A stretch of 64,000 nucleotides of DNA from Spirochaetaceae bacterium (GCA_017622135.1 JAGARR010000053.1:39340-103339), one strand, 5' to 3'; shown: positions 46,367-64,000, counted from the stretch's first letter. Notes: generated by a model not told the origin, from the sequence alone. Made by a program: numbers and translations.

Positions 46367-47690
46367 CCCAGTCCTCCTGGCTCCAAGGAGACCTCTGGGT
46401 GGGCACCAGCTCCAGTGCTCCAGCAGACTCCCCCACCAGCTGGAAGGTCAAAAGTCCGGCCTGTACCTTGGCGGCTACCACTCGCTCCACTGCCCTATCC
46501 AGCAGGGCGGCAAAATCAGCGTCGCTCTGGCTCCTGTCAAGAATCAGCCGCAGCACGGAGCCAAACCGCTTCTCAGAGAGCATAATCACGTCAACGCCAG
46601 CTTCCAGGGCCAGCATCACCGCCTTGTGGGGGGGGAAGCCGTTCTTTTCCAGGGCCGCCATAAAAATATCGTCGGAAAGGATGAGCCCTCCATAGCCGAA
46701 ACGTTGACGCAGCACCTCCGTCACCCAAAAGTGGGAGAGGCAGGCGGGTGTCTCGGAATCCTGCTCTGGAGAGGCGGTGGTGCCACTGGTACTGATCCGG
46801 GCATGGGACATGAGGACCGCCCACGGATCGCTTTCCTGCAGCACCCGGCGGAAGGGCTCCAGATAGAACCGCTCCAGCTCCTGCTGCTCCAGGGCAATCT
46901 CCGGCAGTCCTGAGTGGGGGTCGTCGTTGGTGTTTCCGGGAAAGTGCTTGGCAACCGCTATCAGTCCCTGACTCTGGAACCCTTTGATGGCGGCACCGGC
47001 AAATTCCTCCATGGTTCCAAGACCCCCAAAGCTGCGGCTGTCCAGAAAGGTGCTGTTGTGCTGGCTTTCCGCCTCGGCCACCGGGGCAAGATTCATCTGG
47101 AAGCCCAGCAAGCTCATCTGTGTGGCCTGGGTGGCGTACAGGGATTGGGCCTGGCTGGAGGTGAGGGACTGGGCCACCTGCCGGGCCGAGGGCAAGGGGG
47201 AGGTTACAGAACGGAGGCGGTTCACCATGCCGCCCTCCTGGTCCACTGCCAGTAGTGGCGGAACCATGCCCCGCTGCTGGCTCCAGCTCTGGATGGAGGC
47301 GGTGAATTCCGCCACCTGGGCTGGTGTTTCGGCGATGTTGTATGAAAAGAAAAGATAGCCTCCGGGCAGCAGGGCCTCCTCAGGAAGGTCACCCCACTGG
47401 AATGACTCTACCGGGGAAAAGCTCCTGCTTCCCTCCAGATTCACCAAAAACAGCTGGCTGTACCGTTGCACCGGATCCAGAGACTGAACAAAGGCGCGGA
47501 TAGCCTCCTCTTGCTGACTGCGGGCCAACTCCTCTGGAGCGACTGCTTGTGGTGATGACACCTCATTGTTTGAATTGAAAGTATCTTTTGTTGGATTATC
47601 CTTGCCGCTGCAGGAAAGGACCAGCAGGGCCGTTGCGGTAAAAAACAGGAATCTTCCGATTCGTGTCATCTTTTTTCGTGCCATGGTCAC
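46305..47690 (-). CDS. Glycoside hydrolase family 3 lipoprotein (NagZ-like beta-N-acetylhexosaminidase)
   Basis: Lipobox LVLSCSG. GH3 motifs LLAVDQEGGMVNRL, KHFPGNTNDDPHSGLP and ILSDDIFM. Confidence 0.85.
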   Translation of the reverse strand: MTMARKKMTRIGRFLFFTATALLVLSCSGKDNPTKDTFNSNNEVSSPQAVAPEELARSQQEEAIRAFVQSLDPVQRYSQLFLVNLEGSRSFSPVESFQWGDLPEEALLPGGYLFFSYNIAETPAQVAEFTASIQSWSQQRGMVPPLLAVDQEGGMVNRLRSVTSPLPSARQVAQSLTSSQAQSLYATQATQMSLLGFQMNLAPVAEAESQHNSTFLDSRSFGGLGTMEEFAGAAIKGFQSQGLIAVAKHFPGNTNDDPHSGLPEIALEQQELERFYLEPFRRVLQESDPWAVLMSHARISTSGTTASPEQDSETPACLSHFWVTEVLRQRFGYGGLILSDDIFMAALEKNGFPPHKAVMLALEAGVDVIMLSEKRFGSVLRLILDRSQSDADFAALLDRAVERVVAAKVQAGLLTFQLVGESAGALELVPTQRSPWSQEDWDAVHQQGMELYCSVFGGTSE

Positions 47691-51791: not shown

Positions 51792-54700
51792 TCATACTTT
51801 AATCCCTATTTTGTTTCTTAAATCATCGAAAGAAGCAACGTGGTCATAGTGAACTTCCTTTGATGAAACCACATTGAACAGTTTTTTTGCACATTCAATT
51901 TTATTTGCTTCTATCTTTCTCAATTGCAAATCTTCCAAACGTCCCTTTGTTTCAGCAACAAAGAAAATATGTTTTACCCTATCCTTATCAAAGGCAATGG
52001 CCCAATCCGGTGCATAATTTCCCACAGGTGTTGGAATTTGGAATGAACGGGGAAGTCTTGCATAGACCACCACTTCTGTAGCACCATCAAGCTGTTCAAC
52101 AAATTTCCATTCAGTATCACTATCTACAAAAACTAAATCTTGAATGCACTTTGATGCAGGAAAAGCATCTTTATTAGATAAATTACCAGCTGTAAAAATA
52201 CTTGAATCATAAGTATCTGATAATTCATGATACTCAATATGCTCAACTATTTTTGTAGATTTTTGAGCATTAATGATATTGATTACATCACGAATAAATT
52301 TTTCTGGATTAAATCCAAATTGCTCCATCTCTTTTATTGTAAGTTGACTCAGAATTGTAGCCACCGTCTTTCTGGTTAGCTTGCAGCCTTTTGCAATATC
52401 ACCTACAAGGTCATATTTTACTGTACTAGATGTAGCTTTACGAACTATCTTTGATTCACTTTTCGTTTCACCAAAGGAAGAACCTGCTTTTAATTCAGCT
52501 TCATCCATTTTATCTTTTTGTTTTCCCACCTCCAAGGTATAACGCATAGGAGCAACATGAAGCTCCTTTTTAATTGCATCAACAGCATTGTTTATCAACT
52601 CTTCGCTATTAAACTGGCAAGTATATGAATACTTATGATTGATTTTATGCCACAACTCTTGGAAAATCTCCTTATCAAAGTTTCTGTTCAACGGATTTCC
52701 ATTTTCCCATTTTGGATGCTGTGCATTATCAATCATTCCAGAAAGCATGGAAGGATTATAAACGGCCTGAACAAGTCTTTGGATTTGTTCAAACATCTCT
52801 AGGCGAGCTTGGGGATTTGTTTGTATTTCATCCGGTAAAGTATATTCAATACTTTCAGGAATTCTTTGCAAACAACCGTTTTCTACCGACTCTTTATATA
52901 TTTGTGTTGGTTGATCATTTTCATCGATATAATCGTTCTTTAACAAATACTGATAAATGATTTTTGCTTGTTTTGCATCAAGTTCTATCTTGTAGCCACA
53001 AACAGTAATTACCTTACCGACAAAATAATCAATATCAGCAATTTTAGGGCGTGTATCAGAAAGTTCTGCTGCAATATCTTTTTGCAAACCATCCACAAAA
53101 TCTTTATAACTTTCACTGGCAATAACGGTGAGAGTATTAATTTCATGGACACTTTCGCCAAGGATATCTTTATCTTGACGTGCACCATCCTCATTTACGC
53201 AAAGTCGCATACCCCGCCCCACTTCTTGGCGACGAGAAACAGTGTTATCGGAATGCTTTAAAGTACAAATCTGGAATACATTGGGATTATCCCACCCTTC
53301 TCGCAATGCAGAGTGAGAAAAAATAAACCGTATTGGCACAGTAAAATCTAAGAGCAGCTCCTTTCGTTTAAGAATCAAATCATAAGTTGAAACATCCTCT
53401 TCTGACTCCCCATTAGAATTGGTTAATCTGCCTTTTTTATCCCGACTAAAATACCCTTCATGACAGGAACTAATTTCTTTTGCAGTTGGAAGCAAATACT
53501 TTTGATAATAACTATCAGGAGAAATATGAAGAAACTCATTCATGACATTGACATATTCCTCCTCAAACATTTGACCATATTCACCAGGAATTTCAGAACC
53601 ATCTTCTTCTGTAGCACGATATTTTGCAACTTCATCGATAAAGAAAAGAGAAAGAACTTTTATTTTCAATCCCTGCTCATAAAATTCCCTCTCCTTTTCA
53701 AAATGACTACGAATGGTTTCTCTAATTTGAACTCGACGAATATCCTTTTCTGCAACATTTCCTGTTACTTGTCCCATAAACAACATAGTAGGATCTGCAT
53801 TGGAACTTACAGACACATTAAATCTAACTGCATTTATTTCTGGCAATATTTCGGCAATGTAAATTCCCTTATATTCTTCCAAACCTTTTGACACAACATC
53901 AAGCTTATCTCCAGTTAAAAGTTTTACTGGAAGCCGTTTAATTCCGTTTGCTTGCTTTACATCAATTTCTAATTTTACCATTGGTGGTTGTTTGGGAGAA
54001 AGGATGATACTTTCTGCATAAATATAGGTTTGGGTTCCTGCTATATTGTCTAGCCTAAATCCTTTTACCTTAATTTTTTTTACGAGCTTTTGATTATATG
54101 CATCAAGAGCATCAAGACGATATATAAGATTATGCTGAACCTTGTGTGTAGCAGAATAATTTATTGTAAACAAAGGGATAAACTGCTTTAATGCATTTTG
54201 AGTTGCAGCACCACCCATTTTTTGAGGTTCATCCAAAATGAGAATAGGACGATTTGCAGCAATAACATCAATGGGGCGACGGCTAGCAAATTCATCACGC
54301 TTAGTATAAATAATACGTGCAGCCTCATTCCCCTTTCTGCCTGCTACATTTTTATCTTTGTTTAAGGAGCTATTAAATGCCTGCATATTGATTATCATGA
54401 CATTGATATCAGCACTGCTAGAATACTGATCCAGCAAATTCAATCTTTTGCTATTATAGATAAAGTAGCGGATTTTTTTTCCATAACGCTGCATGAAGTG
54501 ATCTTGGGTATATTCGAGACTTTTAAAAACTCCTTCACGAATGGGAAGAGAAGGTACAACTATAATGAACTTACTCCAACCGTAAACCTTGTTCAGTTCA
54601 TACATTGTATTAGTATACACATAGGTTTTTCCAGTTCCTGTCTCCATTTCAATATCAAAACTTGGACTGTTTGCTGTTTTTTCAATTTTTTCAGAATGAA

Positions 54701-54986
54701 TTATAAAATTCCTGTCTTGAATTTTATGGATATTATCTAAAAGTTCTTTATCACTTAAAATCAAATCTGCATTACGATATCCCGTATCTGATTCTTCCAG
54801 TTGTTCATCTTCTGTCTTTTGTTTTTCAAACAATTCTGTTTGGACGTCTTGTTTTACCAATTTGGGCATTAAACCTTTATCACGCAAATATTGTACTCCG
54901 TTTGCAGGTAACTGTCCCTCAAAGCAATCTACAAGTGAAGCTACGGCTTCTGTCTGATATTGTTGTATCTTAAAAGTAAACTTCAT
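51792..54986 (-). CDS. res: Type III restriction endonuclease subunit Res (SF2 helicase/translocase + PD-(D/E)xK nuclease)
   Basis: 1064 aa. Motif I ETGTGKTY, motif II ILDEPQKMGG, C-terminal nuclease YAPDWAIAF...FFVAETKG. Its ATG overlaps the stop of the mod C-terminal frame (TAATG at 54988-54984). Confidence 0.9.
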   Translation of the reverse strand: MKFTFKIQQYQTEAVASLVDCFEGQLPANGVQYLRDKGLMPKLVKQDVQTELFEKQKTEDEQLEESDTGYRNADLILSDKELLDNIHKIQDRNFIIHSEKIEKTANSPSFDIEMETGTGKTYVYTNTMYELNKVYGWSKFIIVVPSLPIREGVFKSLEYTQDHFMQRYGKKIRYFIYNSKRLNLLDQYSSSADINVMIINMQAFNSSLNKDKNVAGRKGNEAARIIYTKRDEFASRRPIDVIAANRPILILDEPQKMGGAATQNALKQFIPLFTINYSATHKVQHNLIYRLDALDAYNQKLVKKIKVKGFRLDNIAGTQTYIYAESIILSPKQPPMVKLEIDVKQANGIKRLPVKLLTGDKLDVVSKGLEEYKGIYIAEILPEINAVRFNVSVSSNADPTMLFMGQVTGNVAEKDIRRVQIRETIRSHFEKEREFYEQGLKIKVLSLFFIDEVAKYRATEEDGSEIPGEYGQMFEEEYVNVMNEFLHISPDSYYQKYLLPTAKEISSCHEGYFSRDKKGRLTNSNGESEEDVSTYDLILKRKELLLDFTVPIRFIFSHSALREGWDNPNVFQICTLKHSDNTVSRRQEVGRGMRLCVNEDGARQDKDILGESVHEINTLTVIASESYKDFVDGLQKDIAAELSDTRPKIADIDYFVGKVITVCGYKIELDAKQAKIIYQYLLKNDYIDENDQPTQIYKESVENGCLQRIPESIEYTLPDEIQTNPQARLEMFEQIQRLVQAVYNPSMLSGMIDNAQHPKWENGNPLNRNFDKEIFQELWHKINHKYSYTCQFNSEELINNAVDAIKKELHVAPMRYTLEVGKQKDKMDEAELKAGSSFGETKSESKIVRKATSSTVKYDLVGDIAKGCKLTRKTVATILSQLTIKEMEQFGFNPEKFIRDVINIINAQKSTKIVEHIEYHELSDTYDSSIFTAGNLSNKDAFPASKCIQDLVFVDSDTEWKFVEQLDGATEVVVYARLPRSFQIPTPVGNYAPDWAIAFDKDRVKHIFFVAETKGRLEDLQLRKIEANKIECAKKLFNVVSSKEVHYDHVASFDDLRNKIGIKV

Positions 54987-55411
54987 TATAGAACCTTCCT
55001 TACTGTGTCAGCAGAATATGTTGTGAATATCTGCTCAAAGTTTGTGGCGACACTATCACTGGCAAAGCCGCTGTCTCGCATTACAAAATAATATGGTTTT
55101 TCTTTTGCAATCTGAGTGATTGTTTCTTCTGTAATATCTTGATCAAAACAGGCTACAAGATAATTGTCGTTTACAAAATAAACTGTTTTTTCATTAACTT
55201 TTTTTGTTTTGATTTTGCTTGAAAGTTGTACGCCTAAATCAAGCATTACTTGGAACAGTAAATCTTCTGCGGTTCGGTCTGGTTTTACGTTGTCTTGAAA
55301 CAAGTCTTGTTTGTGTACATTCTCGGGGGAATAATACACATCCTGCATATTGGATGAATCGATTTTTAATACCCTGAAACCTATATCTAGGCTACTAGGA
55401 GCATCGCCTGT
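54986..55411 (-). pseudogene. mod: C-terminal portion of mod in the +1 frame, disconnected by the G9 tract (track ORF 54986-55348 plus its open in-frame extension)
   Basis: Reading from 55411 gives TGDAPSSLDIGFRVLKIDSSNMQDVYYSPENV... with no stop. The GFRVLKxDSSN pattern is the usual continuation of this methyltransferase family after the catalytic domain. Confidence 0.8.
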
Positions 55412-56901
55412 ACCCCCCCCCTGGTATCTTTAACCAAAAACTGATTTCCTGCACGGCGAATGCGTTCTTTGCCGATTTCACAGATGTTTTTAAAACCAGC
55501 TTTGTATGCTTCTGATTTTTCATTTGTTACTTCGGGAAGCTGCACCATAATGAATTTACGTTTGCCACCGTCTTCTGCGTTAAGTTGCATGACGGCATGG
55601 GCGGTTGTTGCTGAACCAGAGAAGAAATCAAAGATGATTGCATTTTCATCATGTATAGACTGAATAAGGAATTTTATTAAACTAGCCGGTTTTGGGAAGC
55701 TAAAGACTTTATTTCCAACAAGTGAATCAACTTCTTTTGAACCGTTTTCATTCATTCCTATGTCACTTGGTAAGGCAGTAGAAACACTTTTCAAAAAATT
55801 AGTTGTACCATATTTTTCAAATGCTTTTTTTCTGTCTTCGCTTTCAAATACTCTGTAGGCAGGTATAGAAATATTTAAGAAATCATAATCATCTGGAAAA
55901 ACAATTTTTCCTTTATCATAATAACTTGGAAATGTATCTTTTGTAATGGCCCATAATCGTTTTGGATTATATTTATACTCTTTTCCTGTTTTTGGATCAA
56001 TTAAATTAAAAGCAGAATTTGGACGCTGACTTTCAATTTTTTGAGTAGTTAAATCTGATAAACGCCATCTATCATTAGGATAATCTGGGCTTGAATAGTA
56101 TTTTCTTTCTACTGGCACACCTGCAAAGAATTTCTGAGATTTAGCATAAACAAGGACCCATTCAAAATCTTGTGAAATTCCGAATGGTACATCTGTTTTA
56201 GTAGTCCTTTTTCTGTAAGGTATTATTCCAGCAAAATTTACGCTTCCGAAAATCTCATTTCCAATATTAATAAGATTTTTTACTTCCTTATCATCTATAC
56301 TAATAAATATAACTCCATCGTCCGTTAATAGGTCTTTTGCGATTTTCAATCTTGGGTACATCATGTTAAGCCAGTCGGTGTGGAATCTTCCGTTACTTTC
56401 AGTGTTTGCTACAAGACGATTTCCTTCTCCATCTAGCTGCCCACTGTTTGCAATGTAATCATCTGCGTTTTGTGCAAAATCATCCTCATACACAAAGTCA
56501 TTTCCCGTGTTATAAGGTGGGTCGATGTAAATCATTTTGATTTTTCCAAGATATGTTTCCTGCAACAGTTTTAGAACTTCTAGGTTGTCGCCTTCTATGT
56601 ACAGGTTTTCTGTGGTGTCAAAGTTTACGCTTTCTTCTCGACAGGGACGAAGGGTTTTGTTTATTGGAGCATTTGCTGTAAGAATGGCTTGTTTCTTGTC
56701 TGGCCAAGTGAATTGGTAACGTTCCTCTCGACCTTCGACTACTTTGCAATTAATTTCTTGCATGAGAATATCTTTATCTATCGCACGTACTACATTTCCA
56801 TTTTCATCAGTGCTTTCTGTCACTGCATTTGGAAAAAGAACTGCCAGTTTTTCATAGTTTTCATTTGCTAAGTTTTTTGTTTGCATTTTGAGTTTATCCA
56901 T
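55387..56901 (-). CDS. mod: Type III (beta-class) N6-adenine DNA methyltransferase Mod, as read truncated at 504 aa by a frameshift in a G9 tract
   Basis: Motif IV IYIDPPYNTG precedes motif I FDFFSGSATTAHA (beta-class order). The variable TRD-like middle and the location directly upstream of res fit Mod. The ORF ends 8 codons after the homopolymer. Confidence 0.9.
   Translation of the reverse strand: MDKLKMQTKNLANENYEKLAVLFPNAVTESTDENGNVVRAIDKDILMQEINCKVVEGREERYQFTWPDKKQAILTANAPINKTLRPCREESVNFDTTENLYIEGDNLEVLKLLQETYLGKIKMIYIDPPYNTGNDFVYEDDFAQNADDYIANSGQLDGEGNRLVANTESNGRFHTDWLNMMYPRLKIAKDLLTDDGVIFISIDDKEVKNLINIGNEIFGSVNFAGIIPYRKRTTKTDVPFGISQDFEWVLVYAKSQKFFAGVPVERKYYSSPDYPNDRWRLSDLTTQKIESQRPNSAFNLIDPKTGKEYKYNPKRLWAITKDTFPSYYDKGKIVFPDDYDFLNISIPAYRVFESEDRKKAFEKYGTTNFLKSVSTALPSDIGMNENGSKEVDSLVGNKVFSFPKPASLIKFLIQSIHDENAIIFDFFSGSATTAHAVMQLNAEDGGKRKFIMVQLPEVTNEKSEAYKAGFKNICEIGKERIRRAGNQFLVKDTRGGVQAMLLVA
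55413..55421 (-). repeat. Homopolymeric G9 tract (C9 on the plus strand) inside mod; candidate slipped-strand phase-variation site
   Basis: Counted directly as tacccccccc + c. It is the only long G/C run I saw in the ~30% GC island, and it sits exactly at the frame break between the two mod ORFs. Confidence 0.85.
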
Positions 56902-57006: not shown

Positions 57007-58134
57007 CTATCCATGTAAAGTTCCCTGATTCATTAATAACTCTACCAATCTATCATTAATGTAATAATTACTTGTTCCAATCTTAATTTTCGAAAGTAAT
57101 TTTAATTCTACGATTAAGTCCAAATATTTCGATGCTGTAAAACGAGAAACATTCAAATCATTTTGAATAAATTCAATTTTTGTATAAGGATGATTAAATA
57201 AATTATTTAGTAATTCATGATTATATTTTGTTCCAAAAGCATCTCTTATTTTTCCTTTATATTCATCCATCAAAAATTTAATTTGTTGAACTAATTCAAC
57301 AGTTTGCTTAGCCGTTTCTTCAATCCCTTTCAATATAAAAAACACCCAATTTTCCCAATCAGCATTGTTATTACCAGAATTATCCCTTATCTTTTGAATT
57401 AGTGAATAATATTCAATTTTATTATGTGTAATGTATCTACTTAAATATAAAATTGGCAAATCTAATAAATCATTTACTACAAGATATAAAACTGAAATAA
57501 TTCTTCCTGTCCTTCCGTTTCCGTCATAAAATGGATGAATACTTTCAAATTGATGATGAATTATTGCAAGCTTAACAAGCGGATCAAGTTCCGATAAAGA
57601 TGAATCATTTATAAACTTTTCCAAATTTCCCATGTATTTTTCAATTTCCTGTAGAGTTTGAGGTGGCGTATACACCGTTTCACCCACATTATTTTCAAGA
57701 TGTGTGCCCGGTAAGGTTCTAAAACCAGCTTTATTTTGCTCCAGTTCTTGTTGTATTTCTTTTATGATACTATTTGTTAGAAGTTTAGCTTTTCTTACTT
57801 TTGAAAAACCTAATTGCATGGCTTGTCTATATCTCAATACTTCTTTTGCAGCAATTCGTTTAGCAGTTTGCTCTATTTCTTTCATATTTAAATCTGTTTT
57901 AAACAAATCATCTTGAGTAGTAACTATATTTTCAATTTCGGAACTATCTTTTGCTTCTTGCAAAATAAGTGTATTTAATAAAATTTGTTCATTAGGAATT
58001 GTTTTTGCAACTCCTTTCAATTCTGCTAAAGCACGAGAAGCCAAATTTTGTTGTTTTAGAATCTTTTTAGTTTCTAAATCTATGTTTAGCGGAAGAACAG
58101 GAATTTCATACAGACCTGTATTAATGTTTGTCAT
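57007..58134 (-). CDS. fic: Fic family protein (AMPylase-type; N-terminal inhibitory motif and C-terminal wHTH-like domain)
   Basis: 375 aa. Canonical Fic motif HPFYDGNGRTGR and upstream SSEIEN, which matches the (S/T)xxxE(G/N) auto-inhibition motif. Confidence 0.9.
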   Translation of the reverse strand: MTNINTGLYEIPVLPLNIDLETKKILKQQNLASRALAELKGVAKTIPNEQILLNTLILQEAKDSSEIENIVTTQDDLFKTDLNMKEIEQTAKRIAAKEVLRYRQAMQLGFSKVRKAKLLTNSIIKEIQQELEQNKAGFRTLPGTHLENNVGETVYTPPQTLQEIEKYMGNLEKFINDSSLSELDPLVKLAIIHHQFESIHPFYDGNGRTGRIISVLYLVVNDLLDLPILYLSRYITHNKIEYYSLIQKIRDNSGNNNADWENWVFFILKGIEETAKQTVELVQQIKFLMDEYKGKIRDAFGTKYNHELLNNLFNHPYTKIEFIQNDLNVSRFTASKYLDLIVELKLLSKIKIGTSNYYINDRLVELLMNQGTLHG

Positions 58135-58255
58135 TACAATACCTTCCTCAATCTAAGATATTTTCATCTATTTTGTTTAGTGAGTGCATTTTTAGGTGTG
58201 TCATGGGAGAGCTCCTTATCAGTTTCTATTTTCATCATCATATAGTCCACTTACT

Positions 58256-58264
58256 ATTCTACCA
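58256..58264 (-). promoter_or_regulatory. Extended -10 promoter candidate (TGGTAGAAT) upstream of fic
   Basis: Minus strand TGGTAGAAT, immediately after the stop of the TOPRIM-like gene and about 120 nt before the fic ATG. Confidence 0.35.
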
Positions 58265-58270
58265 TGTTTC

Positions 58271-59011
58271 TTATAACTTCTTTAGTTCTTTAAACACTTC
58301 TCGTATATTTTCATATTCTTCCCAAGGTATTTGGGTTAAAATCTTATATCGTTGACGAAAATGATTTTTAGTTGGTTCAATACGAATCGCAAAATAAGCA
58401 TATAATTTTGCTTTTGTTACAAATCCCCTATGAGTAAGATATTTTTTTTCAGGATCTGCACTATCAACAAATTCTTTTGCTTTTCTTATGATTTCAGCGT
58501 CATAAGAATCTGCTTTAGAAACAGAGTCCAACAAAAAAGTTTCTAAAGCACCATTCTCATTAAATGGAATTATTAGAAGCAATAATTCACAATTAAATTG
58601 ATTTTGAGAGGCATCTTTAAAAGTTAATGATGTCCAATTGTTATTACTACTTATCGGAATATTATTTTTTACAGAATCATTTAATTCAGATACAATTCTT
58701 GTTTCAACACAGTCATCATCATTATCTGTAAGAACGACAATCTTTGTATATCGCTCACTATCTTCTATTTCATTTTCATTTTTACGAATTACTTCTTCAA
58801 AAACAGTTTTTATATTTCCACATCCACCACAAGAAATAATTGTAAGCATATTAGAATCTTTAAAAAAATCACGACTTAGCGAATTGTGAACATGTGAGTT
58901 AAAGGAAGGATTGGAATTTTGTTTCGAATCTTTCCATCCATTGACTTTAATCATAAAGTGCTGAAGAAAAACAAAATCTGTTTCTCCTTCACAAATAATT
59001 ATTGATTTCAT
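58271..59011 (-). CDS. TOPRIM-type / RloB(AbiLii)- or AriB-like protein, partner of the upstream ATPase
   Basis: 246 aa. The N-terminal IIICEGETDFVFL (conserved Glu) and VVLTDNDDD (DxD) form a TOPRIM-like pair. The start overlaps the ATPase stop (TAATG). Confidence 0.65.
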   Translation of the reverse strand: MKSIIICEGETDFVFLQHFMIKVNGWKDSKQNSNPSFNSHVHNSLSRDFFKDSNMLTIISCGGCGNIKTVFEEVIRKNENEIEDSERYTKIVVLTDNDDDCVETRIVSELNDSVKNNIPISSNNNWTSLTFKDASQNQFNCELLLLIIPFNENGALETFLLDSVSKADSYDAEIIRKAKEFVDSADPEKKYLTHRGFVTKAKLYAYFAIRIEPTKNHFRQRYKILTQIPWEEYENIREVFKELKKL

Positions 59012-60126
59012 TATCTGAGCTCCTGATTAAAGTTATAATCTGCCTCTATTGCTCTTTCTGCACTCAGTTTTCTTGCAATATTTTTTCCATTTTTTTTGTA
59101 TAGAGTAAAAAGAGTAATATCACCTTTTAATTCAATATCTGAATTGAGTGCAAGAATTTTTTGTAAAGCTTCTTTACTATGAGTGGTCAAAAAAAGTTGA
59201 ATATTAAGTTTCTTACAAGTCTTTAGAATCCACTCATAAATTTTTGTCATTGCTGAGGTGTGAATCGCAGTCTCAAACTCATCAATCAATAAGACTCCAT
59301 TTTTTACATGAAGAATAGCAGTGGCTAGTTGTATAACTTTTTTTAATCCATCACCATACACAGTAAGAGGAAGTAATTTTCCCATAGATTTTGAACGAAT
59401 TTGATAACTGTTTTTTAGTGGAAATGGAATATCATATTCTCTAATAGTTGGAACAATATCTAGAATATCTTCATCAAAAAGTCGTAAAACAGATAGAAAT
59501 TCCTCTTGTTTTTCATTTTCTTTTAATATCTTAGTTATCTCAGTATCATAGTCTTCAGTATATACACAGGGTGGAATATACACTATTTCATATTGGGTAT
59601 AAGGTTTTCTAATATTTTCTACGAAACCATCAAAGCGAGTTACATTAAAAACACCAAACCCATCAACAAGCTTTTCGTTGTAAAAAAAATCAGTATGCAA
59701 TTCTACCAGCTCTGCTTCAGAAAATTCTTCTTCAGGACTACAGCCAATGTGAGCCTCTTCACAGTATTCCCTTTTAAATACTTTGTTTTTACTGATAGAA
59801 CCTTTTAATTCTACAGACGAAACGCCATTTTTGTCATCTTCTTTTTTATATGCTATACGCATTTCACTTTCAGCAATCGAATATAAATTTTTTATCGACT
59901 CAAAAACAGTTTGAGAAGGGTTGGGGTATTTTGTAGTTCTGCCTAATCGACTCCAAACTACAGGTGAACAAGGATTGCCTACCGTTTGGAGCACTTCAAG
60001 AACACTGGTCTTTCCACAATTATTGTCACCAGTAAAAATATTGACCCCAGTGAAGCTTTCTAAATGAAGATTATGTATACCTCTATACGTTTCAATGTTC
60101 AATGACTTGACGTGAATATTTCCCAT
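59011..60126 (-). CDS. ABC-type AAA ATPase (AAA_21-like; AbiLi/RloA- or AriA-like)
   Basis: 371 aa. Walker A GDNNCGKTS, Walker B LLIDEFETAIH, and LTTHS (H-loop). Confidence 0.8.
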   Translation of the reverse strand: MGNIHVKSLNIETYRGIHNLHLESFTGVNIFTGDNNCGKTSVLEVLQTVGNPCSPVVWSRLGRTTKYPNPSQTVFESIKNLYSIAESEMRIAYKKEDDKNGVSSVELKGSISKNKVFKREYCEEAHIGCSPEEEFSEAELVELHTDFFYNEKLVDGFGVFNVTRFDGFVENIRKPYTQYEIVYIPPCVYTEDYDTEITKILKENEKQEEFLSVLRLFDEDILDIVPTIREYDIPFPLKNSYQIRSKSMGKLLPLTVYGDGLKKVIQLATAILHVKNGVLLIDEFETAIHTSAMTKIYEWILKTCKKLNIQLFLTTHSKEALQKILALNSDIELKGDITLFTLYKKNGKNIARKLSAERAIEADYNFNQELR

Positions 60127-60197: not shown

Positions 60198-60806
60198 TCA
60201 TAAACCATTCAACTCATCTTCCAAGTTTCGCTTCTGACTGACAAGTTCAAACTTCTTCTTTGGCTGGATTTCTTTCCTTGCAAGTTTTTCAAGTTTAGCT
60301 ATCTCTTTCTGAAGCTTTTCTTTTTTTTCTTTTAATTCTATGTTTTCAGAAAGAGAAAGATTTGAATCCCATTCTCCACCTTCTATTTTTTTAATGATAT
60401 TTTCCCACACTTCATCAAAGGTAAGCCCCTGTAATTCAAGCTGAACTTGTGCTTCAGGTATCCAGGCTGTGGTAAACATTCTTTCACAAAATACAGCCAG
60501 CTGGATTTCTTCTTCAAACTGAAGTGCAAACACAAGATTTTGTGGTATCAGCTTTGCAATTCTTTCTATATTCTTGTAATCAATGATTTTTTTCTTTAGC
60601 CTTACACTAAGAACATAAAAACTTTTTACCTTGGAACCTACTCTAATTGCAGGAATTGTTCTGCTACTAATCTCGTTCACAATATCTATCCTGCTAATAT
60701 CCAAGTCAAATTTCGTTTGTTGTGCATTATTCAACTGAAACTTTTTATAAATCTGAGACTTTGGTAAGTTTTTTTGCAATTGAGTGATTTCTGGAAGATT
60801 AAGCAT
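60198..60806 (-). CDS. DUF4391-like protein (assignment from memory of the family pattern; needs HMM confirmation)
   Basis: 202 aa. LPKSQIYKKF..., IDIVNEIS..., VLSVRLKKK..., ERIAKLIPQNLVFALQF..., LELQGLTFDEVWENIIKKIEG, then a Lys/Glu-rich coiled tail. 8-nt overlap with the helicase gene. Confidence 0.6.
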   Translation of the reverse strand: MLNLPEITQLQKNLPKSQIYKKFQLNNAQQTKFDLDISRIDIVNEISSRTIPAIRVGSKVKSFYVLSVRLKKKIIDYKNIERIAKLIPQNLVFALQFEEEIQLAVFCERMFTTAWIPEAQVQLELQGLTFDEVWENIIKKIEGGEWDSNLSLSENIELKEKKEKLQKEIAKLEKLARKEIQPKKKFELVSQKRNLEDELNGL

Positions 60807-63800
60807 ATGTACCCTCTTTTATAACTAAAAAGCAAATAAGTTCAAAGTCATCTAAACCATTAATTTGTCCATGTTTAAAATCAACAGAATCACCACTTAA
60901 GAATAAATCCATATCACTTTCGTCTTTAACTTCTATAATTGAGGCAATTGAATCACCCAAAAGCTTGTTGAAGAATTTCATGTTACGGCCATCCTTTGTC
61001 TGTTCATTAAATTGTTTGTACACTTCTACAATAGGTTCATCTTGACCCTTGCACAGTAACCTCATTTTATCTAACATATTTTTGGGATTTAAATGATTAC
61101 ACACCACAGTACCATCTTCTGCAATATAAACCATGTAAAATGGGTGTAGGCAATTTTGATTATCAATGTTTACATTATTGTTTCTATTTTTAAGAATATA
61201 AATAACACCAGAAGGACAATCTTCTGAGGCCTTTACAACTGCATGAAGTCCAAAAGGAGTGGCATCTAAATAACCATTATCTTTAACGTATTCTAACAAA
61301 TCTAAGCGAAACTCATTTAAACCTAAGTCCATAATACTGATTCCAGTATTCATTTCTTCAATATCCACCACTTCCTCTTTTAATTTTTGTAATTGAGCCT
61401 TTCTGTACTCCAGATCCTTTTGGTTATCATCCAAAAGATTGTCGTCTGCTGTAGCAGTCATATCCACAATCTTCATACGAGTTTCTACTCGGTTTTTAAG
61501 ATTTATATATTCATCTAAAGTTAAATCTGGCCAGAAATTTACCAGCTGAATTACATTATTTTTACTACCAATTCGGTCAATACGACCAAATCTCTGAATA
61601 ATACGAACAGGATTCCAATGAATGTCGTAATTAACGAGATAGTCACAGTCCTGCAAATTTTGGCCTTCCGAAATACAATCCGTGGCAATAAGTACATCAA
61701 TACTTCTTTCATCTCCAGGATAAATTACATCCTTATCTTTTGACATTGGAGAAAAATACGTCAAAACAGCATTCAAATCACATTTAAACTTTTCCAAGGT
61801 AGTTTTTCCTTCAGAAGTTCCACTTATTTTTGCTGAATTGAGAGAGTATTTTTCCTTTACATATACGCTCACTTGCTCATAAAGATAATCTGCCGTATCA
61901 GCAAATGCTGAAAAAACTATAATTTTCTTATTGTCTGAATTGATAGGTTTTTCTATTTTACCACTTATTATTTCCAGCAATTTTTGCAATTTTGAATCCT
62001 TTGCTGGAGTTATATCTTCAATGAGGCTTTCTAAGCCTGATAAAATATTTGCGTCATTCGTTAAATCATTAAGCCATGAAATATAATCCATGTCCTTCAG
62101 ATCTATTTTGACTTTCTTGCCAATGGTAAAAATATCACAGGTATTCTGATCATCAAAATCATAGTCCCTGTCAAAAGACATATCTTGAATAGCAATCTCT
62201 GAAGTTGAATCATGAGAATGAAAATTGTTCACCATTTCAATCGTGTGTTGTACATATTCTTTTACCCGTTGAATAGTTAAACGAAAAGAATAAACAGAGC
62301 TTTCCAAACGCTTTAGTAGATTTATCGCCATCAACCGACGGACTCCTAATTCTCGTCCCATTTGGTCAAAACCACCAGCATCATCAATTTCATACTTCGC
62401 CCTTTTACTTGGATGAATAAACAATGAGGGAACATACACTGTCAGTTTTAATTTTTCTAACTCTTCAAAAATCAAGTTAAATGTTGTTTCATTTTCCCGC
62501 TCTGTCAGTGGTGTATGTATAGAAATCGGCTTCAATCTTTTAGGAAATGTCCCAATGTCTTTTGTATCATAATATTTTTGAATATGCTTTCTTGAACGAG
62601 CTATAGTAACACTATCAAGCACTTCAAAAAAATCAAAACTAAGCATTGCCAAAAGATTTTCTGTTGTTCGATCTGCTGTTACCAACTGGCTCCATTTATT
62701 AAATGCAACTTGAGCTTGGCGGAATATATCATCAATAGATTTTTTTGTTTTTAATTGTGAGTCAATATTTTCTACGACTCCTTCATAGGCTAATGCAAGT
62801 TGATTTTTTAAATCGATAAATCGGTTATTGACTGGAGTTGCAGAAAGCATAAGTACTTTTGTTTTCACCCCCTGCTTAATAACCTTGTTCATCAACTGCA
62901 TATATCTATTTTCTTTTGTATTTGAATGAGTTCCAATACCATTCCTGAAATTGTGAGATTCATCGATAACAACTAAATCATAATTTTCCCAATTTATAAA
63001 AGCTAAGTCATTTCCATTAGAGTATCCAGAAGTTCTATTTAAATCTGTGTGAAATAACACATCATATCGCAATCTGTCGTCTGAAATGGGATTGTTCTTG
63101 TAATTGTTTTTATAGATATTCCAGTTATTCGAAAGTTTTTTGGGGCAAAGAACAAGTACCCTATTATTACGGCTTTCGTAGTATTTTATGACAGCAAGTG
63201 CAGTGAATGTTTTTCCAAGTCCCACACTATCAGCAAGAATGCAACCATTATATTTTTCTAGCTTATTAATAATTGCTAAACAGGCATCTTGTTGAAAATT
63301 ATACAATTTTGACCATACTTTGCTGTTTCTAAAACCTGTATCTTCTTTTGGTAGTACATCTTCATTTATATCATCTAAAAATTCTTTGAAAATATTATAG
63401 AGCGTTACAAAATAAATAAATTCTGGTGCATTTTCATTATATGCAGATGCGATATTCTCTATTACTTGTTCAGTAACATCCTGCATAATAGTTTTGTTCT
63501 CCCAGAACTGTTCAAATAACTGTAAAAAACTAAGACTCATAGGAGCTTTCATTTTGGTAATTGCAAAAGCTGCATTGTTACCTTTTTCTACTCCAAGTTC
63601 AACGGCAGTGAATTCTTTTACTGGATTATAGCTTACCTCATCAACATTAATAAAACTTGGCATAGCCTGTTGTGTCACATTTGACTTGAAAATTGCCTTT
63701 TCTTTGATCCATTGTGCACATTCTTTTGCAATAGCTTTTTGACTTAACTCATTCCTTAATTTAACTTCAAATTCTGTTCCATACAAACTTCTTTCTCTAT

Positions 63801-63987
63801 TTAGACGTGGAATATAAAACTCTCGTTTTTCTTTCTTTACTTTTTCAGCAAGAAATGTGGGGGAAGTAAAGATGAAACGGAACTCGTCAATATTCTTAAG
63901 TTCATTTTGTAACTCTTGATATGCATAAATAGAAAAACAAGCAGCTGCAATGGACACTTTACTACTAGGCCTTAATTCTTCTTTCAT
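60799..63987 (-). CDS. SNF2/Rad54-family helicase (DEAD-like N lobe + HELICc), with an N-terminal extra domain; the 5' end is probably beyond the window
   Basis: Motifs ILADSVGLGKTFTA (I), VVIDESHNFRN (II), MLSATPVNN (III) and ATDCISEGQNLQDCDYLVNYDIHWNPVRIIQRFGRIDRIGS (V-VI). The frame stays open upstream of ATG 63987 to the window edge. Confidence 0.9.
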   Translation of the reverse strand: MKEELRPSSKVSIAAACFSIYAYQELQNELKNIDEFRFIFTSPTFLAEKVKKEKREFYIPRLNRERSLYGTEFEVKLRNELSQKAIAKECAQWIKEKAIFKSNVTQQAMPSFINVDEVSYNPVKEFTAVELGVEKGNNAAFAITKMKAPMSLSFLQLFEQFWENKTIMQDVTEQVIENIASAYNENAPEFIYFVTLYNIFKEFLDDINEDVLPKEDTGFRNSKVWSKLYNFQQDACLAIINKLEKYNGCILADSVGLGKTFTALAVIKYYESRNNRVLVLCPKKLSNNWNIYKNNYKNNPISDDRLRYDVLFHTDLNRTSGYSNGNDLAFINWENYDLVVIDESHNFRNGIGTHSNTKENRYMQLMNKVIKQGVKTKVLMLSATPVNNRFIDLKNQLALAYEGVVENIDSQLKTKKSIDDIFRQAQVAFNKWSQLVTADRTTENLLAMLSFDFFEVLDSVTIARSRKHIQKYYDTKDIGTFPKRLKPISIHTPLTERENETTFNLIFEELEKLKLTVYVPSLFIHPSKRAKYEIDDAGGFDQMGRELGVRRLMAINLLKRLESSVYSFRLTIQRVKEYVQHTIEMVNNFHSHDSTSEIAIQDMSFDRDYDFDDQNTCDIFTIGKKVKIDLKDMDYISWLNDLTNDANILSGLESLIEDITPAKDSKLQKLLEIISGKIEKPINSDNKKIIVFSAFADTADYLYEQVSVYVKEKYSLNSAKISGTSEGKTTLEKFKCDLNAVLTYFSPMSKDKDVIYPGDERSIDVLIATDCISEGQNLQDCDYLVNYDIHWNPVRIIQRFGRIDRIGSKNNVIQLVNFWPDLTLDEYINLKNRVETRMKIVDMTATADDNLLDDNQKDLEYRKAQLQKLKEEVVDIEEMNTGISIMDLGLNEFRLDLLEYVKDNGYLDATPFGLHAVVKASEDCPSGVIYILKNRNNNVNIDNQNCLHPFYMVYIAEDGTVVCNHLNPKNMLDKMRLLCKGQDEPIVEVYKQFNEQTKDGRNMKFFNKLLGDSIASIIEVKDESDMDLFLSGDSVDFKHGQINGLDDFELICFLVIKEGTYA

Positions 63988-64000
63988 ACTTTGACCAAGC

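Follow-up and report, generated by a model that had tools for sequence, protein, structure and literature searches.

Introduction

Type III restriction-modification (R-M) enzymes are defined as two-subunit machines, composed of Mod and Res. In the classical enzymes, ATP-dependent cleavage needs two inversely oriented unmethylated sites, Res relies on Mod for DNA binding, and loss of Mod is non-toxic. Class 1 DISARM, another methylation-based defense system, has a core of drmA (helicase), drmB (DUF1998) and drmC (PLD), with the SNF2 protein DrmD and the methylase DrmMI (pfam13659) as extras. Here, we analyze a 64,000-nt stretch of DNA from a Spirochaetaceae bacterium (GCA_017622135.1, JAGARR010000053.1:39340-103339; hereafter the window), in which type III mod and res genes are preceded on the same strand by genes for a SNF2-family ATPase and for a protein of the DUF4391 family. 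An original prediction, made from the sequence of the window, had taken the translationally coupled SNF2-DUF4391 pair to suggest an elaborated type III-like system, and had described neighborhoods of this composition as recurring in genomes. Fixed synteny and co-divergence, as detailed below, support this notion. The cassette appears to be a widespread, apparently unstudied four-gene variant of type III R-M, whose mechanism we infer from sequence.

No experimental work on such loci was known when the prediction was made, and a literature search that was thin on subscription journals and did not include REBASE found no publication on DUF4391 (by name, as Pfam PF14335 or as InterPro IPR025503) or on the cassette. 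The name DUF4391 in a Goslar phage preprint denotes DUF7941 proteins. In a 2025 study of the lactococcal defensome, type III loci are counted as plain R+M pairs (PMC12418389).

Results

The four genes form one conserved unit

In the window, the SNF2 gene occupies positions 60799–64000 of the minus strand, which also carries all features of the locus given below. As predicted, its stop overlaps the start of the gene for a 202-residue DUF4391 protein (60198–60806) by 8 nt (ATGCTTAA, 60799–60806); the ribosome-binding site of the latter gene, AAGAGGG, lies 7 nt upstream of the ATG, within the helicase 3' end. The helicase open reading frame (ORF) as listed starts at ATG 63987 (63987–60799, 1062 residues), upstream of which no in-frame stop is found within the window. 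Sister contigs with an identical DUF4391 protein (L001–L005) encode a helicase of 1081 residues; the window thus holds residues 20–1081 and lacks the first 19 helicase codons, ATG 63987 being internal, in line with the expectation of a co-oriented helicase of more than 1062 residues. Transcription proceeds from SNF2 and DUF4391 through genes for an ATPase, a DUF3226 protein and a Fic protein to mod, which is split into ORFs of 504 and 120 codons (55387–56901 and 54986–55348), and on to res (51792–54986).

As the DUF4391 alignments contain no conserved stretch of 7–10 residues, a genome census was anchored on the helicase. A scan with the helicase alignment, covering one genome per species, matched at least 600 stretches, 594 of which were confirmed; with two patterns per gene, 600 stretches amount to some 300 loci or more. 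The census consists of the 80 best-matching genome loci among these (54–86% helicase identity), whose ORFs were searched with the DUF4391 hidden Markov model and with the Mod and Res proteins of the window. They stem from Bacillota, Bacteroidota, Spirochaetota, Pseudomonadota, Verrucomicrobiota, Planctomycetota, Fibrobacterota, Actinomycetota and one Methanoregula metagenome-assembled genome (MAG). DUF4391 lies directly 3' of the helicase gene in 71/71 loci with room for it, and the order SNF2-DUF4391-Mod-Res, on one strand, is complete in all 44 loci with at least 9 kb of downstream sequence. All four genes were found in 56 of the 80 loci, where the median gap between SNF2 and DUF4391 is 6.5 nt. 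Many cassettes are compact throughout, with overlapping or abutting junctions, as in Syntrophomonas (L054), Campylobacter concisus (L058) and Stenotrophomonas (L089), and look-ups anchored on DUF4391 in Phascolarctobacterium and Massiliimalia gave the identical order. The recurrence of such neighborhoods is thereby borne out.

The cassette is also present on at least 110 PLSDB plasmids. The E. coli IncFIB plasmid pLAO18 (NZ_OP242248.1:3154-12215) bears a compact version; further plasmid carriers belong to Listeria (L096:10823-19570, likewise compact), Enterococcus, Bacillus, Acinetobacter and Raoultella, and to E. faecium, Shewanella and Paraburkholderia at 39% helicase identity. Among complete E. 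coli genomes, 10/5426 contain the cassette. A tblastn search of plasmids with the DUF4391 protein of the window gave no match, which reflects sensitivity only, because plasmids do carry divergent DUF4391 genes; when metagenomes were scanned with a distant member of the family, no relatives turned up. Helicase matches under about 39% identity are of a different kind, with identities of about 27% and no N-terminal domain, and the one such context examined, in Nostoc, contained no DUF4391 gene.

Might the locus nevertheless consist of an ordinary two-gene type III system and a helicase pair that has nothing to do with it? Defense genes do cluster in islands, and in the window three unrelated defense genes separate the two halves. 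However, order and strand are fixed in 44 of 44 loci, which contradicts chance adjacency of four genes. The junctions are tight or overlapping across phyla and replicon types, the intervening genes vary around a constant four-gene frame, and the four proteins co-diverge (see below). We consider a chance neighborhood extremely improbable; the four genes form one unit.

Several observations concern the surroundings of the cassette. A small Xre-type helix-turn-helix (HTH) gene (66–76 residues) lies directly upstream of the helicase gene in at least 13 loci (e.g. L010:6446-6676; L099:1879-2079). On a Raoultella plasmid, a WYL-domain gene ends at the SNF2 start (L104:9096-10001), and a gene annotated as WYL is also overlapped by the plasmid matches from Enterobacter and Citrobacter; at the Treponema locus, neither of these candidate regulators, WYL or Xre-type, is found directly upstream of SNF2. 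A compact cassette also resides in Erysipelothrix phi1605 (L105:9998-18878; MF172979.1). This 90-kb entry, submitted as a phage, also carries mef(A)/msr(D), and the DUF4391 gene of its cassette bears the annotation "methyl-accepting chemotaxis protein".

Mod and Res are homologs of EcoP15I

Mod is assigned to Pfam N6_N4_Mtase (PF01555), and its motif order, with DPPY (around residue 127) ahead of FxGxG (around residue 440), is that of β-class enzymes. The 504-residue ORF, which ends prematurely after a G tract, and the 120-residue ORF, which is out of frame with it and whose end abuts the res start, match positions 2–479 (2e-179) and 503–620 (E = 4e-31), respectively, of one 621-position PADLOC model, MTase_III. 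In the PDB, Mod matches 6k0w (3e-64) and EcoP15I Mod (4zcf_A; 6e-54). The 1064-residue Res, found as predicted, combines an SF2 ATPase with a PD-(D/E)xK endonuclease domain at the C-terminus (PDW ... ETK); it matches Pfam ResIII and RE_endonuc, PADLOC REase_III (9.8e-275) and EcoP15I Res (4zcf_C; 4.9e-75), and the motifs GTGKT, DEPQ and PD...ETK can be read in its sequence. By their sequences, Mod and Res are unambiguous type III homologs of EcoP15I. With regard to a type III system, the locus thus has the expected Mod and Res homologies but no intact mod frame: the predicted β-class N6-adenine Mod holds as to motif order and homology, but not as an uninterrupted protein.

As in the classical systems of the EcoP15I/EcoP1I and StyLTI types, a β-class Mod is followed by Res, mod abuts res, and the sequences are homologous. 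In contrast to these systems, the cassette places a SNF2 ATPase and DUF4391 ahead of Mod-Res at all 44 loci mentioned above. Res also differs: it resembles the StyLTI-type NCBIfam model PRK15483 over its full length but scores 370 bits, under the cutoff of 564, and only about half of its length aligns to EcoP1-type plasmid Res, with about 33% identity.

The SNF2 protein has an intact ATPase core and no nuclease signature

The helicase matches the Pfam domains SNF2-rel_dom (PF00176) and Helicase_C (PF00271), and thus shows the N-lobe, Helicase_C and motifs I, II and VI of the SNF2 family. The motifs GLGKT, DESHNFRN and QRFGRIDRIG are at least 99% conserved among 80 homologs, and PDB searches return SNF2/Rad54/RapA ATPases. 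Judged by these features, the protein looks catalytically competent as an ATPase. The core is flanked by an N-terminal domain of about 245 residues and a C-terminal domain of about 225 residues, neither of which has a Pfam or PDB-sequence match; a profile search with the N-terminal region against PDB sequences gave noise only (Cullin-3, E = 0.26).

The best PADLOC match of the full-length protein is to C3a139 (2e-115), a helicase model labeled "HKD+Snf2", with which it has only the core and C-terminal domain in common. A PLD nuclease within the helicase, as this label would imply, was considered and rejected: the N-terminal piece alone matches no PADLOC model and its 245 residues contain no His conserved among the 80 homologs, so that the label does not apply, and the sole PADLOC match of the C-terminal piece is to the C-terminus of C3a139, not to a nuclease model. 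Overall, no nuclease signature was detected in Pfam, PDB sequences or PADLOC. The protein also scores 118 bits against a cutoff of 1100 for the NCBIfam PLD anti-phage helicase NF042964 (phospholipD_antiphage), and stays far under the NCBIfam cutoffs for DrmD and DpdE. Some helicases of the family, of 1210 residues (L012:6351-9983 and L016:10001-13633), contain an extra domain, which is of YAcAr/SLOG type by Pfam in Massiliimalia (L012).

Among named families, the helicase comes closest to DrmD (NCBIfam 2e-41, PADLOC 4e-35), which raises the question of a class 1 DISARM-like mode of action, with SNF2 as the DrmD equivalent in a helicase-based block of unmethylated DNA and Res as a DrmA-like motor. 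Class 1 DISARM, too, pairs a SNF2 protein with an N6-adenine methylase, and the SNF2-type ATPase, the methylase and a second large SF2 helicase are a shared inventory. A DISARM connection does exist elsewhere, as on a Bacillus cereus plasmid (L101:2241-15983; NZ_AP022904.1) drmA and the DUF1998 gene drmB form a tight six-gene operon with SNF2-DUF4391-Mod-Res. However, the DrmD score of 142 bits is below the cutoff of 610 and covers the C-terminal lobe only, the methylase belongs to PF01555 rather than pfam13659, and the locus has DUF4391 and a Res with an intact PD-(D/E)xK endonuclease domain in place of DrmA, DrmB and DrmC. None of its eight proteins has a Pfam match to DUF1998 or PLD, and DrmA is matched only weakly, by the SNF2 core. 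DrmA and DrmB as regular parts of the system were likewise rejected, as they accompany it only on B. cereus plasmids, with neither found within 10 kb upstream at the 80 genome loci. Taken together, we regard a DISARM-like mode as improbable. BREX finds no correspondence either, with no PglZ, BrxC or PglX match in PADLOC and only weak similarity of the helicase to BrxHI/II. The locus is neither DISARM nor BREX, as the original prediction had maintained.

DUF4391 is an orphan fold without catalytic hallmarks

The 202-residue protein was expected to belong to DUF4391, and it matches PF14335 over its full length (94 bits against a cutoff of 29.9, E = 1.7e-26; residues 2–199 on model positions 1–232). 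The family comprises about 830 clusters at 50% identity, nearly all of them standalone proteins of about 200 residues; PADLOC has no model for it. A confident AF2 model (pLDDT 90.8) shows an α/β domain (residues 1–145) followed by a two-helix, C-terminal hairpin (residues 152–201). Foldseek searches with this model found no match better than E = 0.05 in the PDB (best E 0.12) or BFVD (best E 0.056), and the C-terminus returned only designed coiled coils from the PDB. K16 is the sole invariant residue among 74 diverse members; the best-conserved features are an N-terminal MLGLPxxTE..K.LPK motif and an EKQP motif at the hairpin tip. A likeness to Hjc and splicing endonucleases, raised by low-probability Foldseek matches, was dismissed because the acidic and lysine catalytic residues are not conserved. 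Nothing in sequence or model points to catalysis, which suggests that DUF4391 is non-enzymatic. With no nuclease signature in either SNF2 or DUF4391, the role of a second effector, originally proposed for the pair beside possible roles in target search and discrimination, is disfavored.

A metagenome contig encodes an in-frame SNF2-DUF4391 fusion (P0475, 1219 residues) that omits about the last 40 SNF2 and the first 22 or so DUF4391 residues. This fusion was seen a single time and could be an assembly artefact.

Co-divergence of the four proteins and asymmetric decay

SNF2 is the most conserved of the four proteins, with a mean pairwise identity of 63%, followed by Res (54%), Mod (48%) and DUF4391 (33%). 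Mantel correlations are positive in all six protein pairs (r = 0.49–0.77, p = 0.001). For partial correlations of pairwise divergence (47 loci), Mod-Res, a known physical complex, served as a positive control and gave 0.57; significant values were also obtained for SNF2-DUF4391 (0.56) and DUF4391-Res (0.45; p = 0.002 for each of the three), but not for SNF2-Res (0.09), SNF2-Mod (0.00) or DUF4391-Mod (0.04). The DUF4391-Res link skips the intervening mod and is therefore not simply one of adjacency. Within SNF2, it is the C-terminal domain that DUF4391 divergence follows best (r = 0.80).

Decayed cassettes are asymmetric. On Lactococcus plasmids, Mod-Res has been kept although an insertion sequence (IS) element immediately precedes it or IS712 interrupts the SNF2 gene, and E. 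faecalis plasmids have kept DUF4391-Mod-Res; an intact SNF2-DUF4391 pair without Mod-Res was not seen at the census loci or on plasmids. Based on the Mod-Res-only Lactococcus plasmids, the pair looks accessory and not essential for carriage. Asymmetric decay and co-divergence together lead us to read SNF2-DUF4391 as an accessory motor module dependent on Mod-Res.

IS-mediated decay is seen in a plasmid clade of Listeria, Enterococcus and Lactococcus (Lactococcus cremoris pJM2E, L097, and matches H111–H127), in part of which Mod-Res stands alone behind ISS1. In the same clade, the target-recognition region of Mod has been swapped between cassettes that are otherwise 97% identical.

The same plasmids bear on another role for the pair, that of a control or safety module and not a part of the attack. 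Such a module might strip or reposition Mod-Res on host DNA to prevent self-restriction, for instance upon arrival in a new host, following replication or following a phase switch, or it might regulate expression of the operon. High mobility (plasmids, islands, many phyla) and frequent phase variation (see below) of the cassette are conditions that give rise to unmethylated self sites. Remodeling of protein-DNA complexes is an established activity of SNF2 enzymes, the helicase matches RapA, and the pair is encoded first in the operon. However, cassettes reduced to Mod-Res or with SNF2 disrupted by IS712 are stably carried on Lactococcus and Enterococcus plasmids, which argues that the pair is not needed for host viability. 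In addition, the dependence of classical Res on Mod for DNA binding and the harmlessness of Mod loss leave less need for a safety device. We therefore consider this role unlikely.

A poly-G tract places mod under a predicted phase switch

The break in mod, which the original prediction had overlooked, coincides with a tract of nine G residues (G9; 55413–55421, C9 on the plus strand) near its 3' end, at about codon 493 of 633, which we predict to be a phase switch, here in the OFF frame. G9 is the only G or C run longer than five in the 12.2-kb island, the next-longest being five, and only about 0.004 such runs are expected by chance. The tract is G9 in the window and in sister contig L002, G10 in L007, G11 in L003 and G12 in L001, L005 and L006. 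Its flanks are identical in five of these six sister contigs; in L006, a G replaces the A just 5' of the run, and its G12 counts that base. With G10, L007 encodes an uninterrupted Mod of 633 residues. As G10 restores the frame, Mod appears to be phase-variable and is in the OFF frame in the window, and the population could toggle between states. With a repeat inside the ORF whose length varies between near-identical sequences and changes the frame, mod has the features of a contingency locus. The restriction-modification half is OFF in this sequence and, by extension, presumably so in expression.

Four other species have cassettes with tracts of G8–G11 in Mod or Res, but with none in the SNF2 and DUF4391 genes. 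The concept of phasevarions, with simple-sequence repeats inside mod that set its ON/OFF state, is reviewed in PMC11868660. The present tract resembles those of phasevarion mod genes of Haemophilus, Neisseria and Helicobacter in being a repeat inside the reading frame that varies in length between samples. It differs in lying near the 3' end of mod, within a four-gene cassette of a gut or environmental Treponema-lineage MAG.

Three further observations concern mod or G runs. L006 combines a 739-nt internal SNF2 deletion with its G12 (OFF) mod (L006:845-3349) and represents a decayed allele of the same population lineage. Tandem mod pairs precede Res in L018:13998-18314, L032:13899-17649 and L045:14026-17824, with G8 in each of the L018 copies. 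Outside the island, the window has a G8 run at 46628–46635, in a host region of high GC content.

A proposed division of labor

Based on these results, we favor, as the probable reading, a four-component type III derivative in which SNF2-DUF4391 is an accessory motor, DUF4391 an adaptor and the poly-G tract a switch. By homology to EcoP15I, Mod would recognize a short asymmetric site and methylate one adenine, and Res would cut unmethylated invading DNA by means of its SF2 ATPase and PD-(D/E)xK domain. The translationally coupled upstream pair would constitute a motor module that depends on Mod-Res. In this module, SNF2 would act as an active double-stranded DNA translocase or remodeler without nuclease activity, and DUF4391 as a non-enzymatic adaptor whose globular domain and conserved hairpin tip tie SNF2 to Res, most likely via the SNF2 C-terminal domain. 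The adaptor role is suggested by the chain of partial correlations, by the close tracking of the SNF2 C-terminal domain and by the single in-frame SNF2-DUF4391 fusion; in this model, the hairpin tip (EKQPKKK) and the N-terminal MLGLPxxTE motif of DUF4391 would sit at interfaces. The motor might transport or gather complexes of Mod and Res, or remove obstacles bound to the DNA ahead of them.

Several points weigh against this reading. Res resembles the StyLTI-type model over its full length and Mod-Res-only plasmids persist; as StyLTI works with Mod alone, the extra pair may add little to restriction itself. The chain of correlations may partly reflect linkage or the wider dynamic range of the fast-evolving DUF4391. 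The census is helicase-anchored and covers the best 80 of at least about 300 loci, with DUF4391-anchored checks confined to Treponema, Phascolarctobacterium, Massiliimalia and plasmids. The spread of tract lengths among metagenome assemblies could partly be assembly noise, and the AF2 model of the SNF2 N-terminal 235 residues reaches a pLDDT of only 37.

A bolder extension, possible although we consider it rather unlikely, is that all four proteins of the cassette form a single machine, in which the orphan fold of DUF4391 docks an active double-stranded DNA translocase onto a type III enzyme. If so, translocation would replace or supplement passive one-dimensional sliding and alter the rules of type III restriction. 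Such a machine could cut from a single site or from sites in any orientation, or plough through DNA-bound anti-restriction proteins. ATP-dependent restriction systems would then include a further, separate class, which would also act as a standard chassis into which defense genes are embedded.

Insertion slots flank mod

In the 56 loci with all four genes, the DUF4391-Mod gap exceeds 600 nt in 22 and the Mod-Res gap in 20; the SNF2-DUF4391 junction is rarely interrupted. The two gaps hold 68 ORFs, nearly all of them in the orientation of the operon. Their products are 23S-rRNA-IVP, Schlafen/AlbA_2 with HATPase_c_4, AAA_14/DUF4143, AAA_21, KAP NTPases and DUF1016, as well as TIR, Zeta toxin, RhuM, AbiEii/AbiEi, Abi_2, Abi_C and Fic proteins. 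Both gaps serve as slots into which variable, unrelated defense genes are inserted.

In the window, the DUF4391-Mod slot (57007–60126) contains the three inserted genes foreseen in the original prediction. An AAA_21/AAA_15 ATPase (59011–60126, 371 residues, AbiLi-like; Pfam and PADLOC, 2.6e-100) and a DUF3226/OLD-like TOPRIM protein (58271–59011, 246 residues; Pfam DUF3226 and PADLOC, 1.5e-82) form the pair PDC-M38A and PDC-M38B. The third gene encodes a SoFic-type Fic protein (57007–58134, 375 residues) with the motif HPFYDGNGRTGR (PADLOC SoFic, 6.3e-116; Pfam Fic_N, Fic and SoFic-like_C). A PADLOC run on the island, one of the checks proposed at the outset, thus returns MTase_III, REase_III, PDC-M38A/B and SoFic. 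Near-identical Treponema contigs differ in the same slot: L004 (10306–12374) has an extra GAPS4 pair, and in L008 (4621–7402) genes for DUF6680 and an AAA_13 ATPase replace the cargo of the window.

R-M and BREX operons with embedded defense genes likewise show variable same-strand Abi, toxin-antitoxin, TIR, Fic and ATPase genes between conserved ones, but the scaffold here is a four-gene type III derivative. The Hma system of PADLOC, which we take to be a comparable cassette with embedded accessory defense genes, is matched by the helicase only weakly (HmaA, 2.4e-24).

The island and its borders

In a composition scan, the GC content drops from 55–62% to 31–35% at about 51.7 kb and stays low to the window end, close to the roughly 30% noted earlier for all genes of the system. 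Every long ORF of this low-GC stretch is on the minus strand. We infer that the four-gene region is one horizontally acquired operon of about 12.8 kb. The 278-kb contig L001, which supplies the helicase N-terminus missing from the window, shows ordinary host genes on both sides of the island: an HTH/transposase-like ORF, an Endonuclease_NS gene, ABC transporter genes, RuvC and YebC on the helicase side, and ABC transporter genes past Res. Its upstream flank contains no further gene belonging to the system. Flanking direct repeats, looked for at the island ends, were not found, and a promoter and terminator scan gave fewer promoter-like sites than shuffled sequences.

About 230–525 nt past window position 64000, L001 carries some eight tandem 22-nt units with the core GATAAGCTAT, followed by three 22-nt units with CAGTGAGA. 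The array (L001:6282-6576) is located at the border of the island, about 190–480 nt ahead of the SNF2 start, and these repeats may be regulator-binding or iteron-like sites.

Discussion

The two-subunit definition of type III enzymes is affected by these findings, as a mobile subfamily, with at least about 300 genome loci and more than 100 plasmids, carries two further conserved proteins. Its hosts include E. coli, Listeria, Enterococcus, Veillonella, Campylobacter concisus and Bacteroidales. Current surveys count such loci as plain R+M pairs (e.g. PMC12418389), which represents a gap in annotation.

A role for the pair in the cassette would give a function to DUF4391. It could explain what selects for a second motor beside Res, and might clarify the part that SNF2 proteins such as DrmD play in methylation-based defense. 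The copy on an E. coli plasmid makes the role of the pair directly testable. Finally, the cargo slots and the poly-G switch are of practical interest for the defense islands and methylomes of gut spirochaetes.

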